From Bacteroidia bacterium (GTDB lineage: Bacteria > Bacteroidota > Bacteroidia > JADZBD01): DNA of 64,000 nt. The stretch lies in the NCBI GenBank assembly GCA_020054095.1, contig JAGVMA010000025.1, forward strand, positions 18,321 to 82,320. Reading direction: 5' to 3'. The translations under genes were made by a program, and so were the position numbers. This document shows, piece after piece, positions 2,990 to 62,791 of the stretch (position 1 is its first letter; every line of letters starts with the position of its first letter). The notes beneath the pieces were generated by a model. The model had not been told where the DNA came from, did no database searches, and worked only from the letters and a program-made list of their open reading frames with translations.

Positions 2990-3142
2990 TTTTTAAAACT
3001 AAAGAATAAAGTATTAAGTACAAAGTATTTTGTATTAAGGTTGCAAGCTACAAGAGGTATGACATAGTATCCAAAACTTGTCATTCTGAACGAAGTGCAG
3101 AATCTCTAAAACAAATAAAATTACAACTCCGATATATTGGAA

Positions 3143-3877
3143 TTATAATTTTATTGCCCTCAGCATTTCGCGTTTGCCGGGTGGGCCTTGCAGTTTTTCT
3201 GTTTTAAATCCAGCTGATTGCATTGCTCTGCGAACATCGCCTTTAGCGCAATAGGTAACCAATGTTCCACCTGTATTAAGCAGCGTGTGCATTTTACCGA
3301 AAATTTCCTGCGTCCACATTTCGGGTTGAACACGCGGAGCAAAAGCATCAAAAAATATTAAATCGTAATTTTTATATGGCACAAAACATTGCACCGATGT
3401 GCTGATTTTTGTGAGCCAAAATTTTTCAGTGATTTTTTCTGCAACATCCCAATTGGGGTTGTGCAATTTTTCAAAATAATTATTGCCATCGGCAACTTGT
3501 GTTGCATAATTTAACCGGGCAATAATAGCAGCATTAAGCGGAAATGCCTCCAATGCATCGTAACTAACATTACAATTTAACTGTTCGGCTGCAATGCAAG
3601 TTAGCAATGCATTAAGCCCGGTGCCAAAACCAATTTCTAAAATATTTATTTCTTGATTATGGATGCTTCGGCTACGCTCAGCATCCTTATTGATATTACT
3701 GTGGATGCTGAGCGTAGCTGAAGCATCGGGAGAAGTGTCAATGAAATAATTAAGTCCATTATTTATAAAAACATACAAGCTCTCTTGCACCGCACCGTGC
3801 CGCGAGTGATAAGTTTCATCAAGCACAGCATTATATATGCTGTGCGACCCATCGGTGGTTGTAATTAATTGTAGCAC
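3143..3877 (-). CDS. MnmC2/MnmD-like SAM-dependent tRNA (mnm5s2U34) methyltransferase; contains an in-frame palindromic insert
   Basis: Motifs IGFGTGLN and FFDAFAP...W...GG..TY, as in the MnmC C-terminal (Methyltransf_30) domain. Insert at 3661..3727. Confidence 0.6.
   Translation of the reverse strand: MLQLITTTDGSHSIYNAVLDETYHSRHGAVQESLYVFINNGLNYFIDTSPDASATLSIHSNINKDAERSRSIHNQEINILEIGFGTGLNALLTCIAAEQLNCNVSYDALEAFPLNAAIIARLNYATQVADGNNYFEKLHNPNWDVAEKITEKFWLTKISTSVQCFVPYKNYDLIFFDAFAPRVQPEMWTQEIFGKMHTLLNTGGTLVTYCAKGDVRRAMQSAGFKTEKLQGPPGKREMLRAIKL
3661..3727. repeat. 66-bp nested inverted-repeat element inside the mnmC2-like CDS (24/25-bp arms, each arm itself a 6-bp-stem hairpin)
   Basis: ggatgcttcggctacgctcagcatcc ...16 nt... 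ggatgctgagcgtagctgaagcatc. Length is a multiple of 3 and encodes DASATLSIHSNINKDAERSRSIH. Confidence 0.7.
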
Positions 3878-7092: not shown

Positions 7093-7410
7093 CTAATGTG
7101 CATCAAAATAAAAAGAGCCGGCAGGTGAATCGAAAATTGCTTTTTCGAGTTTCATGATTGCATCTTCTACCAAATGATTGTTATTGACTTCTTGCGCCAA
7201 AAGTTCGGCTACAGCCGATGTGTTTATTTGCGTAAGCGGAGTTTGCAACAGCAGCAGCACATCTTGTGTTGCGCGTTTATAATACAGTACCACGAAATAT
7301 GAAACATCTATTTGCAAAACATGAGTAAACGATTGCTTGTAGCCATTGGCAGGAATTTGATTTTTCTCGATAAAATCAAAAACAAAAGCCGGATTAGTGT
7401 TTAATTGCAC
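7093..7410 (-). CDS. Hypothetical protein (105 aa)
   Basis: ORF with reasonable codon usage between flanking genes. No recognised motif. Confidence 0.35.
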   Translation of the reverse strand: MQLNTNPAFVFDFIEKNQIPANGYKQSFTHVLQIDVSYFVVLYYKRATQDVLLLLQTPLTQINTSAVAELLAQEVNNNHLVEDAIMKLEKAIFDSPAGSFYFDAH

Positions 7411-11242: not shown

Positions 11243-14200
11243 TCATCTAACTACGCTAACGTGGCCAATGTAATTGTGCTTTTTATCAAACACATCTAAT
11301 ATCACTACTTTCCACACGTAAGTATCTTCTTGTACTAATGTTTTTCCATCACCTCGGCTAAGCATTTTAGCATCCCATCCTTTGTTCATGTCTTCTGTCC
11401 ACCAAATTAAATCGCCCCAACGGTCGAAAATCATGAGCTTGTATGTTTTCCATCCAATACCGTAAGTGAAGAAGAAATCATTTATTCCGTCATCATTAGG
11501 TGTAACGGTATTGGGAGCGAAGAAAGTGAATTCGGGAATAATCTCCACTATGTGTTGTACTGTATCCACGCATCCGTTTCCATCAACAATAGAAAGTGTT
11601 ACCAGATATTGGTTAATGCCCGTGTTATCAGCGGGGAATAAGTGTGAAGGATTTTGGATTGTATCGTAACCCTGAGAGCCATCACCATAGGTCCAAGTCC
11701 ATTCTACCGGATTGCCTTGTGATAAATCAGTGAAGTTTACATTTGGATCAAGAACAGTAGTGGGGTTTGGTGATGAACTAAATTCTGCAACCGGTAAAGG
11801 GAACACAGTGATATAACCATTTTTAACAAGTGTAGCCGTACATCCGTTATTGGTAGTAACCGTGAGCGTTACAGTATAAGTACCTGCATTGGTATAGCAA
11901 TAGTTAGGGTTTTGTTGTGTGCTTGTACTACCATCGCCAAAATCCCAAGCCCAACCTGTAATGGTACCGGGTGTAACGGTTGATAAATCGGTAAAATTTA
12001 CACAGTGTGTAACGCAACCTGCAGTATCATCAGCAGTAAAGTTTGGTGTTGGCAGTGGATTAACTGTTACTGTTTGCATGATGCTATCAATACATCCGCC
12101 AGCAGAAGTTACTACCAAAATCACATTGTAAGTTCCTGGAGCTGTGTAAGTGTGCGGTGGACTTTGCGAGGTGGAATTAGTGTTATCTCCAAAATCCCAA
12201 GCCCATCCTGTTATATTGCCTGGGTTAACAGTTGACTGATCGGTAAACTGAGTTGAAGCATTTAAACAAACAGAAGTATTAGTGAACGCAGCTGTAGGTA
12301 AAGGATTAACATTTACTTGTTGAGTAATGGTTTGCGAACAACCATTGTTAGATGTAACGACTAATGTAACTGTATAGTTACCTGCAGCTAAATACGTGTA
12401 TGATGGGCTTTGTTGACCAGATGTTTGTGTGTTACCGAAATCCCAAGCCCAAGATGTTATATTTCCTGAGCTGATAGTTGATTGGTCAGTAAATACAGTA
12501 GGATTGCCAACACAAACTGTAGTTGCTATGAACTGTGCTGTAGGACCCGGATTAACTATAACCTGTAATGTAGTGGTTGCAGTACATCCGCCTTGCCCAG
12601 TTACAACAAGTGTAACCGTGTAAGTGCCATCGGTTGCATACGGGTGTGTTGGATTTTGTGTATTTCCTGTTGTATTATCGCCAAAGTCCCAAGCCCATTG
12701 TACTGCATTAGTTGATAAATCAGTAAACACGGTAGGTGCATTTACGCACACAGTAGTTGCTGTAAATTGGGCGGTAGGTTGTGGATAAACCACCACTTGC
12801 AATGCAAAAGTGCTTTGGCAACCTTGGTTAGATGTTACAGTCAATATTACGCTGTACGTGCCGGCAGCTGTAAATGTGTGCGTAGGGTTTTGAACAGTAG
12901 AAATATTATTGGGTCCCGAGTTAGGATCACCAAAATTCCATGCCCATGAAACGATATTTCCACCAGATATTGTTGACTGATCAGTAAATGTAGTTACTTG
13001 ACCTTCGCAAACGGTGGTGGCTGAAAATTGTGCTGTAGGCAGCGGATGAACTGTAACTTGATTATAAATTGTATCCGGACAAGGTGATGAACTGTTAATT
13101 ACCAACATCACGTTGTATGTACCTGCGGTACTGTAAGTGTGTGTAGGGTTTTGAAGGTTAGATACGTTATTAGGGCCAGATGATGGCTCATCAAAATTCC
13201 AATCCCACTGTGTAGCTTGTGTAGACTGATCGGTAAATACAGTTGGATTATTTAAACATACCGCAGTGCTGGTAAACTGTGCAGTTCCACCATTGCTTGG
13301 CGAAACAGGTACCTGTACGGAGTCGACACAACCATTGGAGGAGGTAACTATGAGCGTAACTGTGTAATTTCCTGTATTGACATAACTATGCGTTGGATTC
13401 TGATTGTAATCTATGGGAGTGTTATCACCAAAGTTCCATGTGTACGTATTCCCCCCCGTGGACGTATTGGTAAACTGAGTGTTCATTGAACAAACTGGAT
13501 TATTTACCGTGAAACTTGCAACCGGAGCAGGATAAACAACTACTGTACGGCAAATTTGTGTTGTGCAGTTTGCAACCGATGTCATTGTACAGCAGTATTG
13601 GCCACCAGTAGTAACTGTTATTGATTGTGTAGTTTGATTACCCGGAGTCCACAAATATGAGTTTGCACCTGCAGGTGCAGAAAGTGTTACTGATCCTCCT
13701 TGGCATAGTGAATCGTTTTGAACCAATGTTAATGGCGAGCAGCGGGCATCAACATAAGCATAACCATAGTGACCACCGTAGCAGCAATCACCAACCGTAA
13801 AACGAATAGTTACGTTTTGACCAATGTATGCTTGCAAGTCAATACTCACAGGGGTCCAAGGGCGAACATACACATCATTGAATCCACAAGTAGTAGAAAG
13901 TGTAAAGTTTGGAATATTTGGACCACCAACCACTACATAGTTTCCGCAAAGGATTGGATTACCAGCTTGGTCAAACATGTCGGCACGGAAAAATGGTTGT
14001 TCGTTATTTGCGTGCAATGCGTCTTGAACCACCACTGCATAATAATAAGTAAAAATCGCATTGTTATTTGCAACAGTAAAAGTTTGTTCTAAGCGCGCAG
14101 CTCCGTAACCGGAAACAGCTCCATCACCTAAGCGTGCAGAGCAAGTACCGCCAGGGTTTACAACCGGAAATTGTCCGCAAGGGTCTAATCCATTACCGGT

Positions 14201-57886: not shown

Positions 57887-58034
57887 TATTGTTTTGTTCT
57901 TTTTGGGACATTTAAAAGAATTATCTTTTAGCTAATTCAATCAATAATTTTACTCGCACTATCGTATAAAAAGTATTTTTCAACATATTGCCCTACTTAT
58001 GCCGAAGCACAGCAATTTTCTTGGCTTGGTATTG

Positions 58035-58043
58035 TATATTTGG
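58035..58043 (+). promoter_or_regulatory. Candidate -7 box (TAtaTTTG) upstream of the Type IIL RM gene
   Basis: gtaTAtaTTTGgaaac, 17 nt upstream of ATG 58060. Weak -33 TTG. Confidence 0.3.
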
Positions 58044-58059
58044 AAACTTTTATAGCAAT

Positions 58060-60879
58060 ATGACCAAAGAGCAGGCAAAAGCCACGATAGATAAACTTGT
58101 TGAACGATTTGAGGAACACCGCAAAGAATACCATTTGCCCGATTATAACGAGCAAAAGGCTCGGCAGGATTTTATTAATCCGTTTTTTAAAGCACTTGGT
58201 TGTGACATTGATAACGAAAAAGGAGCATCCGAAGCATATCGCGAAGTAATTTACGAAGACAAAGTAGTAGTGCGTGGAAAAGCAAAAGCACCCGACTATG
58301 GTTTTCGTTTGGCAGGAAGCGGAAAAAAAAGATTGTTTTTTGTTGAAGCAAAAAAACCATCCGTTGTGCTAAAAACAAATAAAGAATCCGCATATCAATT
58401 AAAACGGTACGGAAGTAGCGCACAGGCTCATGTTTCTATTCTCACAAATTTTGAAGATTTTATTGTTTACGATTGTTCACGAGTTCCAAATCTTAACGAC
58501 AGTGCAAGCGTTGCACGTTTAAAGCACATTCATTTTCAAGATTACGGAAAAGAATTTGATTTTATTTACGACACATTTTCGCACGAAGCAGTTACAAAAG
58601 GACGTTTTGATAAATTCGTACAAAGTGATGCCAATAAAAAAGGAACCGACACGCTGGATAAACGATTTGTAAAAAGTCTTGATGAGTGGCGTTTGTATCT
58701 TGCTAAAAGCATTGCATTTAATAACCGAAAACTGAACGATGAAGAAATAAATTTTTCCGTTCAGCAAACGCTCGACCGTTTAATATTCATGCGCTTTTGC
58801 GAAGACCGCGCAGTAGAGCCCGATGCTCAATTGCAAAAAGCAGTTTCCAAAGGCGATTCATATAAAAATCTTGTTGATCTTTTTAAACAAGCCGATGATA
58901 AATACAATTCCGGACTTTTCGATTTTAAGAAAGACGTAATCACTCCCAAACTTAAAATTGATAACAAAGTTTTAAAAATCATCATTAACGAATTATATTT
59001 TCCATTATGTAATTTCGATTTTCGTGTAATGCCCGTTGAAGTATTGGGTAATGCCTACGAGCAGTTCCTTGGAAAAGTAATACGCACAACACCTGCACGC
59101 AGTGTAAAAATTGAAGAAAAACCCGAAGTGCGAAAAGCGGGCGGAGTATTTTATACACCACAATACATTGTTGAATATATCGTAAAAAACACAGTAGGAA
59201 AATTAATTGACGGAAAATCGCCAAAGGAAATTGAGAAAATAAAAATTGTTGACCCTGCCTGTGGTAGCGGTTCATTCTTGGTTGGAGCATTTGAATATTT
59301 GCTCAATCATCACGTTAATTATTACCACAAAAAAGGATATGCCACCCGAAAAGGAAAAGATAATCCTTTTACCACGCAAGGAACACTAACTACACACGAA
59401 AAAAAACGCATCCTTATCAATAATATTTTTGGTGTTGATATTGATGCCAATGCAGTTGAAGTAACCAAGCTGAGTTTGTTGCTCAAATGTATGGAAGGCG
59501 AAACAGCCGCCAGTATTCAGCATCAAATGAGTTTGTTTCACGAGCGAGTATTGCCTAACATTGACAACAATATTAAAGATGGTAACAGTTTAATTGATAC
59601 TGACATTTATGATAGTGAAATTGATTTAGGTTACGAGAAAAAAATTAAGCCTTTCTCTTGGAAAAAAGGATTTCCTGAAGTATTTAAGCAAGGTGGATTT
59701 GATGTAGTTATTGGAAATCCGCCTTATGTAATGCTTCAAAATTTAGAAACAAGAGAAGCATTTGATTATTGTTTAAAGAAATTTCAGTCTGCTAAATACA
59801 AAATCGACACGTATCAACTTTTTACTGAGCAATCTCTCAAACTTATAAATGATAAAGGTGTTTTAGGATTTATTACTCCAAATACTTTTCTTAAAAATAT
59901 TCATGCTGAACCTTTAAGGAAATTTATCCTCAATAATGCTATTATAAATGAAATATTATTATTTAAGTATCCTGTATTTGTAGATGCAAGCGTTGACACT
60001 TGTGTATTTGTATTTGAGAAAGGGAAATCCTCATCTAAAAATGAATTAAGTGTAAAGCAATCTGAAATTTCTTTTGAGATAAAAGAGCTAAGCTCCGTTA
60101 AGCAAGCGGACTTTATAAAAAATAATAGAACTGATTTTAATCTTTTAATTTCAGGTAAGGATTCTGAAATACTTAACAAAATAAATAAGGTATCGGAGCC
60201 TCTTGAAACATTTTGCGATGCATATTTTGGCATTCAAACTTTTGACAGAGAAACATTTGTAAGCACCAAAAAAATAAATAAAAATTATGAACCCGTTATT
60301 GATGGCGGAAATATTGAGCCATATTATCTCAAACCATCAACGGATTATGTAAATTATATTCCTTCTTCAATAAAGAGTGGAGGTAACGAGTCTATTTATA
60401 GACAAAACAGGGTTTGTATTCGACAAATAGGAGCATATCCAATCGCAACCTTTGTTCCAGCAGGGATTTTTACTCTTAATACAATCTATAATGTTTATTT
60501 AAAAGAGAAGGATGCCGCTAATCTAAAATTCATACTTGGAATTATTAACTCAAGCACAATACAGTTCTTTTGGAAAAAAAATAATTCTGACGAGAAAAAA
60601 ACCTTTCCGAAAATCAAAAAGGAAGCCATCCTTTCAATTCCAATTCCAATGGTAAAGAAAGATGTTAAAAGAAAACAAAGTCATGATGAAATAATAAAAA
60701 ATGTTGAGTTCCTTTTAAAATTAAACGAAGAAATAAGAGCAGAAAAACTTCAAACTAAAATTGAGCAGTTAAAACTGCGAATTGAACATAGTGAGGAAAA
60801 AATAAACCAATTAGTTTATGAACTATACGATTTAACAGAGAAAGAAATCGCCATTATAGAAAATGCAGGCAAAAACTAA
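58060..60879 (+). CDS. MmeI-family Type IIL restriction-modification enzyme (N-terminal PD-ExK nuclease, helical linker, gamma-class N6-adenine MTase, C-terminal TRD)
   Basis: PDYGF...FFVEAKKP (PD...EAK). LDRLIFMRFCEDRAVEP (MmeI/PglX LxRLxFxxFAED hallmark). FYTPQYIV, IVDPACGSGSFLV (motif I), VIGNPPYV (motif IV). Start set at MTKEQAKA. Confidence 0.75.
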   Translation: MTKEQAKATIDKLVERFEEHRKEYHLPDYNEQKARQDFINPFFKALGCDIDNEKGASEAYREVIYEDKVVVRGKAKAPDYGFRLAGSGKKRLFFVEAKKPSVVLKTNKESAYQLKRYGSSAQAHVSILTNFEDFIVYDCSRVPNLNDSASVARLKHIHFQDYGKEFDFIYDTFSHEAVTKGRFDKFVQSDANKKGTDTLDKRFVKSLDEWRLYLAKSIAFNNRKLNDEEINFSVQQTLDRLIFMRFCEDRAVEPDAQLQKAVSKGDSYKNLVDLFKQADDKYNSGLFDFKKDVITPKLKIDNKVLKIIINELYFPLCNFDFRVMPVEVLGNAYEQFLGKVIRTTPARSVKIEEKPEVRKAGGVFYTPQYIVEYIVKNTVGKLIDGKSPKEIEKIKIVDPACGSGSFLVGAFEYLLNHHVNYYHKKGYATRKGKDNPFTTQGTLTTHEKKRILINNIFGVDIDANAVEVTKLSLLLKCMEGETAASIQHQMSLFHERVLPNIDNNIKDGNSLIDTDIYDSEIDLGYEKKIKPFSWKKGFPEVFKQGGFDVVIGNPPYVMLQNLETREAFDYCLKKFQSAKYKIDTYQLFTEQSLKLINDKGVLGFITPNTFLKNIHAEPLRKFILNNAIINEILLFKYPVFVDASVDTCVFVFEKGKSSSKNELSVKQSEISFEIKELSSVKQADFIKNNRTDFNLLISGKDSEILNKINKVSEPLETFCDAYFGIQTFDRETFVSTKKINKNYEPVIDGGNIEPYYLKPSTDYVNYIPSSIKSGGNESIYRQNRVCIRQIGAYPIATFVPAGIFTLNTIYNVYLKEKDAANLKFILGIINSSTIQFFWKKNNSDEKKTFPKIKKEAILSIPIPMVKKDVKRKQSHDEIIKNVEFLLKLNEEIRAEKLQTKIEQLKLRIEHSEEKINQLVYELYDLTEKEIAIIENAGKN

Positions 60880-60957
60880 AAACATGACGATTCGCGAACA
60901 CATATATTCAAAAAACAAGAGTGATCAAATTAAAATTGTGGAGGATAAAAGTGCGTA

Positions 60958-61568
60958 GTCCCGTAGGGACGTACAGTTTGTAGAAAAATAAAAACATATA
61001 GAAAACAAGCTCCGTAGGAGCGACCTGAAAATGCCTAATACCTATACACAACTATATATTCAAATTGTTTTTGCCGTAAAGGGACGTGAGAATTTAGTTT
61101 CAAAAAATAACCGAGAAGAATTACATAAATACATTACGGGTATTGTAAAAAATAGGGGGCAAAAGATGATATCTGTTTTTTGTATGCCCGATCATACACA
61201 TTTGTTGGTTGGCATAAAGCCATCTATTTCAATTTCCGATTTAGTAAGAGACATTAAGGCCGGTGCTTCAAATTTTGTGAACGAGCAGAAATGGGTAAAA
61301 GGAAAATTTAATTGGCAGGAGGGGTTTGGAGCATTTTCTTATTCAAGAAGCCAAGTTGATACTGTAGCCCAGTACATTTTAAACCAAGAGGAGCATCATA
61401 AAAAAAATACTTTTAAAGAAGAATACATTGATTTTCTTGAAAAATTTGAAATTGATTACGATGAAAAATATTTGTTTGAATGGATTGCATTATGAACACA
61501 TACCGCTCCTACGGAGCTTATAACGGAATGGAATTGTTTTTCTACAAACAGATTGCTCCTACAGAGCA
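60958..61568 (+). mobile_element. IS200/IS605-like or RAYT-like element: Y1 HUH transposase flanked by REP-like 13-bp palindromes in inverted orientation
   Basis: Left: gtcccgtagggac, cagtttgtagaaaaa, agctccgtaggagcg. Right: cgctcctacggagct, tttttctacaaac, tgctcctacagagca. Exact inverted matches. No TSD, as expected for this family. Confidence 0.7.
61031..61495 (+). CDS. tnpA: IS200/IS605-family Y1 (HUH) transposase TnpA / REP-associated tyrosine transposase-like
   Basis: HuH motif MPDHTHLLV. Catalytic Tyr region VAQYILNQEEHH. 154 aa, typical size. Confidence 0.8.
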   Translation: MPNTYTQLYIQIVFAVKGRENLVSKNNREELHKYITGIVKNRGQKMISVFCMPDHTHLLVGIKPSISISDLVRDIKAGASNFVNEQKWVKGKFNWQEGFGAFSYSRSQVDTVAQYILNQEEHHKKNTFKEEYIDFLEKFEIDYDEKYLFEWIAL

Positions 61569-61611: not shown

Positions 61612-61713
61612 CGGATTGAACATAGTGAAGAAAAAATAAACCAATTAGTTTATGAGCTTTACAATTTAACCGAGAAAGAAATCGCCATAATCGAAAATTC
61701 AAACAAATACTAA
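61612..61713 (+). pseudogene. Diverged duplicate of the 3' end of the Type IIL RM gene (C-terminal tail remnant)
   Basis: Encodes ...KQRIEHSEEKINQLVYELYNLTEKEIAIIENSNKY versus RM C-terminus LRIEHSEEKINQLVYELYDLTEKEIAIIENAGKN. About 88% nucleotide identity, continuing past the stop for about 80 bp. Confidence 0.55.
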
Positions 61714-61786
61714 AACATGGCGATTCGCGAACACATAAATATTTTAAACTCAAGTGAGCAAATTAAAATAATAGAAGGAGGGACGA

Positions 61787-62791
61787 ATGAGTAGTAACTC
61801 TATTATTCTTTATACAACACCACAAGGCAACATTAAAGTAGAAGTTATTTTTGAGGGTGAAACTTTTTGGCTTACTCAAAAAGCAATGACAAAACTGTTT
61901 GGAGTTGAAGTGCCTGCAATAAGCAAACATTTAAAAAATATTTTTGAAACAAAAGAGTTGAATCAACCTTCAGTTGTTTCCAAAATGGAAACAACTGCCG
62001 CTGATGGTAAAAACTATGCAACTACATACTACCGCTTGGAAGCAATTTTAGCAGTTGGCTATCGGGTTAATTCAACTGAAGCTACTCAATTCAGAATTTG
62101 GGCAACCAATACGCTTAAGGAATTTGTTACTAAAGGTTTTGTGTTGGATGATGAACGCCTTAAGCAAGGGAAAAATTTTGGAAAAGATTATTTTGATGAG
62201 CTACTGGAACGAATACGAGAAATTCGTGCGAGCGAAAGAAGGTTTTACCAAAAAATTACTGACCTATATGCACTTAGTATTGATTACAATAAAGAAGATA
62301 AAACCACACAAGATTTTTTTTCATCAGTACAAAATAAATTACATTGGGCTATTACGGGCAAAACCGCAGCCGAAATAATTTATACCAAAGCTGATGCAAA
62401 AGAAATTTACATGGGTTTAAAAACATGGAAATTTGCCCCTCATGGAAAAATTTTGAAAAGCGATGTGTCGGTTGCAAAATACTATTTGAACGAAGCACAT
62501 ATTTCTGAGCTTAATCGCATTGTTTCTGCTTATTTAGATTTAGCTGAAAACAATGCTCAGAGACAACAACTAATGTACATGAAAGATTGGAACAAATTTC
62601 TTTCCAACTTTTTACAATTATCCAACTACCCAATTTTGAAAGATAAGGGAAAGGTAACTATGTTGGAAGCTAAACTGAAAGCCGAAACCGAATATGACAA
62701 ATACAGAATAATACAAGATAAAAATTACGAATCGGATTTTGATAAGGAAATAAAAAAAATAAGGAATAGAAAAGGAGGGGCGAATGAGTAA
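61787..62791 (+). CDS. RhuM-family (virulence protein RhuM) protein
   Basis: N-terminal EV.FEGETFWLTQKAM..LF.V......H..NIF..EL and YRLEAILAVGYRV.S...TQFR.WAT..L.E match the Virulence_RhuM family. AGGAGGG RBS 6 nt upstream. Confidence 0.7.
   Translation: MSSNSIILYTTPQGNIKVEVIFEGETFWLTQKAMTKLFGVEVPAISKHLKNIFETKELNQPSVVSKMETTAADGKNYATTYYRLEAILAVGYRVNSTEATQFRIWATNTLKEFVTKGFVLDDERLKQGKNFGKDYFDELLERIREIRASERRFYQKITDLYALSIDYNKEDKTTQDFFSSVQNKLHWAITGKTAAEIIYTKADAKEIYMGLKTWKFAPHGKILKSDVSVAKYYLNEAHISELNRIVSAYLDLAENNAQRQQLMYMKDWNKFLSNFLQLSNYPILKDKGKVTMLEAKLKAETEYDKYRIIQDKNYESDFDKEIKKIRNRKGGANE

Follow-up and report, generated by a model that had tools for sequence, protein, structure and literature searches.

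A palindromic repeat dimer as a probable in-frame insertion in a loop of the MnmC2 tRNA methyltransferase of a Bacteroidia bacterium

The stretch of DNA analysed here, termed the window, comprises 64,000 nucleotides of the genome of a Bacteroidia bacterium (GenBank assembly GCA_020054095.1, contig JAGVMA010000025.1, positions 18,321 to 82,320 of the forward strand). At positions 3143 to 3877, on the minus strand, the window carries the gene mnmC2, within which an earlier note, made from the letters of the sequence, had described a 66-bp block of nested palindromes. The gene has a GTG start and encodes a standalone tRNA (mnm5s2U34) methyltransferase, MnmC2/MnmD, of 244 amino acids. The note had called the host mnmC2-like, and this assignment was borne out by a match to NCBIfam NF033855 of 203.8 bits against a cut-off of 136 (E = 2.7e-60), which falls into two stretches, one on each side of the block. 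Pfam PF05430 also matches the protein. The features expected of MnmC2/MnmD, namely a score above the equivalog-domain cut-off, a motif for binding S-adenosylmethionine (SAM) and the MnmC methyltransferase fold, were all found, and alignments showed that the catalytic and invariant residues are all kept. The mnmC2 call of the Joint Genome Institute (227 amino acids) starts 17 codons late, affecting positions 3826 to 3877; with the GTG at 3877 as start, the N-terminus, MLQLITTTDGSHS..., lines up with those of the orthologues, and the NCBI/Logan call has 244 amino acids. A perfect 9-bp hairpin, GCACAGCAT TATAT ATGCTGTGC, at 3823 to 3845 falls within the conserved N-terminal region encoded at the 5′ end of mnmC2 and is probably due to chance.

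The block occupies positions 3662 to 3727 on the minus strand, in frame, and corresponds to codons 51 to 72 of MnmC2, in agreement with the 66 nucleotides and 22 codons claimed for it. The encoded peptide is the 22-residue DASATLSIHSNINKDAERSRSI; the string given earlier was correct for these residues, with a 23rd that was the following His73. SAM-binding motif I, GFGTGLN (3611 to 3631, minus strand; residues 83 to 89), whose columns are invariant in alignments, begins 10 residues downstream of the block, and the block itself is located between a helix (residues 29 to 48) and the strand (residues 76 to 82) that leads into this motif. An AlphaFold2 model built from 77 sequences had a mean predicted local distance difference test score (pLDDT) of 91 and a predicted template modelling score of 0.89. 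Low confidence was confined to the block, where pLDDT values were 53 to 58 compared with values above 85 in the flanks. In Foldseek comparisons the model superposed on E. coli MnmC and Aquifex MnmC2 (2qy6, 3ps9, 3vyw) with template modelling scores of 0.72 to 0.75.

A repeat finder reported the two arms of the block as the longest short-range inverted repeat of the window, the other such repeats being mostly bidirectional terminators or AT-rich sequence. As had been claimed, the arms (3662 to 3686 and 3703 to 3727; 25 nt each) are complementary at 24 of 25 positions (96%) and are separated by 16 nt. Extended by one nucleotide at each end (3661 to 3728), the block reads GGATGCTTCGGCTACGCTCAGCATCC, a 16-nt spacer and GGATGCTGAGCGTAGCTGAAGCATCG. 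The left arm (3661 to 3686) is in "R" orientation on both strands, has the stem GGATGCT/AGCATCC and the loop TCGGCTACGCTC, and is read on the coding strand as DASATLSI. The right arm (3703 to 3728) is the same unit in "F" orientation, with one mismatch to the left arm and the loop GAGCGTAGCTGA on the plus strand; DAERSRSI is encoded here, and the coding strand has GAGCGTAGCCGA in the other arm. Between the arms, an AT-rich spacer (3687 to 3702, 16 nt) makes up the loop of the long hairpin. Taken singly, each arm folds into a smaller hairpin, as proposed, whose 7-bp stem (GGATGCT/AGCATCC) encloses a loop of 12 nt, and has the dimensions of the short palindromes (stem-loops of 20 to 40 bp) termed repetitive extragenic palindromic (REP) elements. 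The 26-mer of the arm matched only its own two arms in the window, and none of 100 shuffled sequences gave a match.

Folding predictions, one of the checks that had been suggested, gave −49.1 kcal/mol for the mRNA strand, in the form of one long hairpin, compared with −15.4 ± 3.1 kcal/mol for shuffled sequences (z = −10.8), and −27.4 kcal/mol for the DNA strand (z = −10.7). The sole mismatch between the arms is in a synonymous TCA (Ser) codon. Were the partner arm altered to restore complementarity, a TGA stop would result, and hence the mismatch pattern is consistent with selection for an open frame, as read from the codons. Five of the six frames of the hairpin unit and three of the six frames of the 66-mer are free of stops; therefore, given a length that is a multiple of three, an open, in-frame insertion is not improbable. 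A scan reported no terminator-like or promoter-like site at the element, and there is no adjacent U tract. The element region and 11 related loci matched no Rfam family, with only sub-threshold matches to generic miRNA hairpins.

Comparison with homologues indicated that the 22 residues are additional to the usual loop. In about 100 of 120 homologues, including the five closest (58 to 63% identity), the loop from GL to ILEIGF has 17 to 22 amino acids, and deletion of the 22 residues from the present protein leaves GLNYFIDTSPDNQEINILEIGF, which has exactly the length of the Formosa loop. In an alignment with E. coli YfcK/MnmC, the segment between aligned blocks is 22 residues longer in the present protein (38) than in that of E. 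coli (16), in line with the estimate that the loop before GFGTGLN is about 20 residues longer than in E. coli MnmC. The suggested alignment of orthologues for a 22-residue insertion thus placed the nearest orthologues among those lacking it, and the view that the insertion is tolerated in a surface loop gained support both from these orthologues and from the low model confidence of this segment. A same-length segment lacking palindromic DNA in the orthologues had been named as the finding that would point to an ancient loop; what was found instead were inserts that differ in length and sequence and are built from palindromic modules. The window stems from contig Ga0394682_010277 of JGI metagenome 3300038435. 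Three other sequencing runs, each assembled independently, yielded contigs with the same 735-bp gene, letter for letter, and because of this identity the element is real and stable in the source population.

The arm belongs to a repeat family that extends well outside this genome. Its 22-nt core, ATGCTGAGCGTAGCNGAAGCAT, used as an exact query against metagenome contigs, was present in at least 120 of them; a wider definition of the family is stem, GAGCGNAGNCGA and stem. The core unit has a 5-bp stem, ATGCT/AGCAT, that starts with AT, and the loop GAGCGTAGCCGA. Among the matches listed (157 units at 104 distinct loci), the 5′ tag was CGTC in 92 (59%) and TGTC in 24 (15%), together 74%, and the 3′ tail was mostly CTC. 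These matches comprised 41 inverted doublets, all of F-R polarity with 30 to 58 nt between the cores, 72 singletons and 3 direct pairs, and about 90% of the copies were outside long open reading frames (ORFs), being mostly intergenic. The stem consists of five Watson-Crick pairs followed by tandem G.A (eight "pairs" if these are counted), and the loop exceeds in length those of the four published CGTC families, whose stems have 8 to 9 bp and whose loops have 4 to 5 nt (PMC3733652). Judged by its signature of tag, AT-start stem and short tail, the family would fit the CGTC-tagged REP superfamily. CGTC repeats have been reported from five phyla, among them Bacteroidetes, with no dedicated transposase known (Di Nocera et al. 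2013, BMC Genomics 14:522, PMC3733652). The same study found REP singles and dimers in frame inside genes, the dimers encoding 20 to 30 amino acids, and reclassified the Rickettsia palindromic elements (RPEs) RPE-4 and RPE-6 as CGTC REPs (PMC3733652).

The element had been described as resembling either a REP or a MITE (miniature inverted-repeat transposable element). The REP part of this description was upheld by the occurrence of the arm unit in at least 120 other contigs; the MITE part was not, as there is no target-site duplication, and for this reason "REP dimer" is the better name. A BLAST search with the element gave one 23-nt match, to a Hymenobacter plasmid, and none to a phage, and a scan of 2.9 million viral contigs gave 1 match. 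These near-empty searches indicate that the unit is not phage- or plasmid-borne, being essentially absent from the phage, plasmid and viral collections. A literature search with the sequence strings of the unit returned only chance primer matches.

Other proteins also contain this unit. In 14 of 111 distinct metagenome contexts among the matches listed, a frame was open across the unit and for 40 or more codons to either side of it. Pfam searches with nine of these 14 and with two further proteins from a scan of genome contigs confirmed most of them as real proteins, and at least seven real proteins other than MnmC2 carry the unit in frame. According to Pfam, the carriers include three type IX secretion system (T9SS) C-terminal-domain (CTD) proteins, a DUF3575 protein, a BT4734-like protein, a penicillin amidase with two units in its alpha/beta spacer peptide and a VapE/PriCT-2 primase whose inter-domain linker carries the unit. 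The peptides are DAERSRSI and DASATLSI, as in MnmC2, or, in a neighbouring frame, MLSVAEAS and MLRLRSAL. In the penicillin amidase (locus L095, near position 12620) the adjacent units GACCCC-TCGGCTACGCTC-GGGGTC and AATGCT-GAGCGTAGCCGA-AGCATT directly precede the catalytic Ser-Asn; the loop is conserved, the stem covaries, and both units are predicted to be translated in the spacer peptide.

The T9SS proteins show how such a unit can behave within one family. Three small CTD proteins (loci L124, L125 and L018) have the unit at one position (2778 to 2802, 7284 to 7308 and about 466 to 500, respectively), and it is identical at 25 of 25 nucleotides between L125 and L018, with flanks that are only 66 to 75% identical. 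In L124 and L125, which are paralogues from one metagenome-assembled genome (MAG), the stems are identical and the 12-nt loop is exactly reverse-complemented (DAERSRSI versus DASATLSI); upstream of the unit they are 70% identical and downstream 97%, the jump occurring exactly at the unit. DASTTLSI, which a single change in the loop of the same hairpin yields, is found in most of 120 family members, and the flipped DAERSRSI in two. This pattern could reflect nucleotide-level conservation, concerted evolution or repeated insertion at the same site.

A separate observation concerns the DASTTLSI variant. At loci L139 to L144 (for example, 4937 to 7370 of L139), an identical 165-residue T9SS-CTD protein with this variant is encoded by the first gene of a conserved set, in the order T9SS-CTD gene, 46-residue ORF, NusG-like gene and tyrosine recombinase gene. 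The homology begins about 116 to 120 nt upstream of the T9SS-CTD gene, and the set occurs in many contigs with varied neighbours, frequently genes for restriction-modification or defence. It has the appearance of a cassette that is mobile or anchored by an integrase. The integrase beside the T9SS family prompted the idea of a tyrosine-recombinase site for the mnmC2 element as well, which was rejected: the surroundings of mnmC2 contain nothing comparable, and a loop would keep its orientation relative to its own gene if the DNA between two sites were inverted.

The loop of MnmC2 that carries the element has received inserts repeatedly. About 20 of 120 homologues have inserts of 16 to 32 amino acids, all of them at precisely this loop; inserts of this size are absent from the rest of the protein. 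In a neighbour-joining tree built with the loop masked, the inserts fell into at least five separate clades, namely, the present protein alone, P0078, P0029/64/68/119, P0082/94 and a Flavobacteriaceae clade. Among 131 representatives of 50%-identity clusters, 118 had short loops and 11 (8%) had long ones. The composition of the inserts was read from the DNA of eight orthologues. Some contain TGTC-tagged modules, such as TGTCATTCTGAACTCGTTTCAGAATCTC, whose peptide, HSELVSES, equals the published CGTC-2 peptide RHSELVSGS. In P0028 (L130) and P0083 (L127) the modules are nested, an outer unit TGTCACCTTGAGCG...CAGTCGAAAGGTTG having a different second hairpin in its loop in each case, an arrangement suggesting that the loop of such a unit is in turn a target for insertion. 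The P0029 insert is an unrelated CCTCCCTCTTC...GGAGAGGGAG hairpin and that of P0082 is a GC-rich hairpin of −46 kcal/mol. Most of the orthologue inserts have decayed, with fold z values between −0.9 and +1.0. As different element families are involved, we favour a selective filter, that is, a permissive loop, over DNA targeting.

Taken with the identity of the core to a widespread repeat and its presence in frame in other proteins, these comparisons led us to regard the 66-bp block as, in all likelihood, an in-frame insertion of a REP dimer in a permissive loop of MnmC2, analogous to the RPEs of Rickettsia. Such an event is of a known kind, that of intragenic REP dimers and RPE-like protein-coding palindromes, and the MnmC2 loop is independently affected in several other lineages.

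Several observations weigh against this interpretation. No empty site was found at nucleotide resolution, the nearest orthologue being only about 60% identical, and there is no target-site duplication, the flanks (...TCTCCC before and ATAATC... after the element) having no direct repeat. The mnmC2 arms also lack the CGTC or TGTC tag, their 5′ flanks being AAGG and GTGG, and belong to a minor variant of the unit that has no tag and whose perfect stem is extended (GG-ATGCT...AGCAT-CC). Their polarity is R-F with 20 nt between the cores, unlike the F-R polarity of all 41 listed doublets. The earlier note had proposed a search for additional copies in the source genome, where REP elements would be expected in many copies; none of the mnmC2 arm unit was found in 71 kb (the window plus 6.8 kb more of its contig), and the repeat nature of the unit is thus seen across other genomes only. 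Across 185,579 species genomes the exact arm had only 5 occurrences, two of them in a single Bacteroidetes MAG and the others in a Spirochaetes MAG and two Flagellimonas genomes, and the exact doublet had zero matches. Nor need the near-perfect arms be recent, as inverted repeats can homogenise and the T9SS unit has stayed at 25 of 25 despite its diverged flanks. Finally, the local IS200-type transposase was rejected as a mobiliser. Its gene (61031 to 61495) is the only Y1 transposase gene in the window and scores as an IS200/IS605 TnpA (68 bits against a cut-off of 55) and below the REP_Tyr_transpos cut-off (31.8 against 80), and its terminal GCTCCGTAGGAGC hairpins are unrelated to the mnmC2 arms.

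One further REP-type element is present in the window, a canonical TGTC-tagged singleton, TGTCATTCTGAACGAAGTGCAGAATCTC, on the plus strand at 3079 to 3106, in the spacer between mnmC2 and a NUDIX gene and 37 nt past the mnmC2 stop codon. This singleton and the mnmC2 dimer are the only REP-type elements in the 64 kb and are at most 650 bp apart. In a distant orthologue (L128), a 26-mer of the singleton is also present, at 1876 to 1901, within the insert of the MnmC2 loop.

Among known systems, the closest likeness is to intragenic GTAG/CGTC REPs (PMC3733652), which are short hairpin units that form longer hairpins as inverted dimers and of which a minority are in frame in known genes. The mnmC2 copy differs from the CGTC REPs in being untagged and in having a stem of 5 to 7 bp with a 12-nt loop rather than a stem of 8 to 9 bp with a loop of 4 to 5 nt. 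The first-described RPE, RPE-1, is about 150 bp in length and specific to Rickettsia (Ogata et al. 2000, reviewed in PMC10969869), whereas the mnmC2 insert has 66 bp and an unrelated sequence and is found in a Bacteroidota-like genome. The likeness to RPEs, which is a functional analogy only, is that of a palindromic repeat carried in frame by unrelated housekeeping genes at sites compatible with the protein fold, and the mnmC2 insert is of this type.

REPINs, reportedly described by Bertels and Rainey in 2011, are said to be REP doublets that form hairpins and are mobilised by RAYT (REP-associated tyrosine) transposases. They are extragenic, number hundreds per genome and have a cognate RAYT gene flanked by the same REPs. 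The mnmC2 dimer shares with them the arrangement of two inverted REP units with a short spacer that form one long hairpin, but neither an extragenic location, nor hundreds of copies, nor a cognate RAYT gene was seen for it in the window. Some MITEs are known as in-frame fusions. The mnmC2 element is, like MITEs, small, without coding capacity and bounded by terminal inverted repeats; it differs in lacking a target-site duplication and a related autonomous insertion sequence (IS), and nearly the whole element consists of "terminal repeats," each of which is a hairpin.

Under the REP-dimer interpretation, two REP-type hairpin units in opposite orientation and 16 nt apart would have entered the mnmC2 coding sequence when mobile or templated DNA was inserted there; the dimer could have been ready-made on arrival, or one unit could have come alone and then undergone inverted duplication or a loop flip. 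The 66-nt block would then be transcribed and translated within MnmC2 as a 22-residue excursion, probably disordered, in a variable loop, and the element would persist because this loop tolerates changes in length. Judging from the conserved residues, the enzyme presumably stays active with the insert. The strong mRNA hairpin may at most modulate translation or the stability of the mRNA, and the element is most likely a neutral passenger.

A variant of this explanation retains the REP origin without insertion of a preformed 66-bp element. One unit would have been inserted first, and the dimer would have arisen locally, by a fold-back or template-switch inverted duplication or by tandem duplication with a loop flip. 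The tag-less GGATGCT...AGCATCC copies elsewhere are all singletons, no R-F doublet was found among the 44 listed pairs elsewhere or in the 185,579 genomes, and the exact inversion of the 12-nt loop between L124 and L125 indicates that the orientation of a unit can change. No one-unit intermediate allele was found, however, and the 16-nt spacer has no recognisable source, and we hold this route to be a possible but tentative one.

It is unlikely that the hairpin has been co-opted as a selected RNA element, for example, as a ribosome pause site before the SAM fold, a determinant of RNase III cleavage or stability, or an attenuator of mnmC2. Such a role would be in keeping with the great stability of the hairpin (−49 kcal/mol) and the synonymous nature of the sole arm mismatch, as well as with the recurrence of palindromic inserts at the loop in at least five lineages and the nucleotide-perfect T9SS unit amid diverged flanks. 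The inserts of other lineages, however, have decayed to the state expected of neutral passengers and are unrelated in sequence from one lineage to another, and the hairpin has neither an Rfam match nor a terminator-like U tract.

A more far-reaching idea, which we regard as doubtful, is that such hairpin units target particular DNA sites, such as the loop before motif I of MnmC2, stay nucleotide-perfect in coding DNA and flip their 12-nt loop, thereby switching a 4-residue peptide between S[A/T]TL and ERSR. Hints of targeting or flipping are provided by the five or more independent palindromic inserts at one loop, the location of both REP-type elements of the window at mnmC2, the T9SS unit with its perfect conservation amid diverged flanks, its exact loop inversion in two paralogues and a second flipped family member, and the nested modules. 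If true, this would be an unrecognised bacterial route to variation of protein loops, or to control of expression by an mRNA hairpin.

We consider it very improbable that the insert is left untranslated, through a ribosome hop like those of T4 gene 60 and the mitochondrial "byp" elements or in a pseudogene. Matching codons (GAT GCT... and AGC ATC) are present at both ends of the arms, 42 nt apart and with a strong hairpin between them, a resemblance that is formal only; an insert that is in frame and has no stop needs no bypass, the unit is open in most of its frames, and the residues required for catalysis are intact. An ancient, lineage-specific loop under protein-level selection, its DNA palindrome being coincidental, is extremely improbable: the loop is indeed variable, and some 8 to 17% of MnmC2 lineages have long versions, but shuffling never reproduced the arm, the core is identical to a repeat in at least 120 unrelated contigs and the closest orthologues lack the segment. 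Chimeric reads can yield palindromes, but an assembly or amplification artefact can be virtually discounted in view of the agreement of the three other runs and the presence of the unit in many other assemblies.

If the REP-dimer interpretation holds, it adds a clear Bacteroidota case to the few protein-coding palindromes on record, hitherto mainly the RPEs of Rickettsia and the intragenic REPs of Opitutus and proteobacteria, and points to one small hairpin unit that occurs exactly across very different bacteria and is carried in frame by many proteins. The MnmC2 loop is a natural permissive site that could serve for insertion engineering of this enzyme, and its inserts provide a test case for distinguishing a selection filter from targeting. 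For annotation, inserts of this type explain odd low-confidence loops and the peptides DAERSRSI, DASATLSI, MLSVAEAS and HSELVSES.

At the other end of the window, the IS200/IS605 TnpA gene (61031 to 61495) has GCTCCGTAGGAGC-type hairpins on its flanks, at 61009 and 61505, and is bracketed by a direct repeat of about 105 bp (60800 to 60905 and 61636 to 61740). This repeat corresponds to the 3′ end of the Eco57I/MmeI-like methylase gene upstream (57988 to 60879), which is thereby duplicated, and a RhuM-family gene (61787 to 62791) follows the TnpA region.

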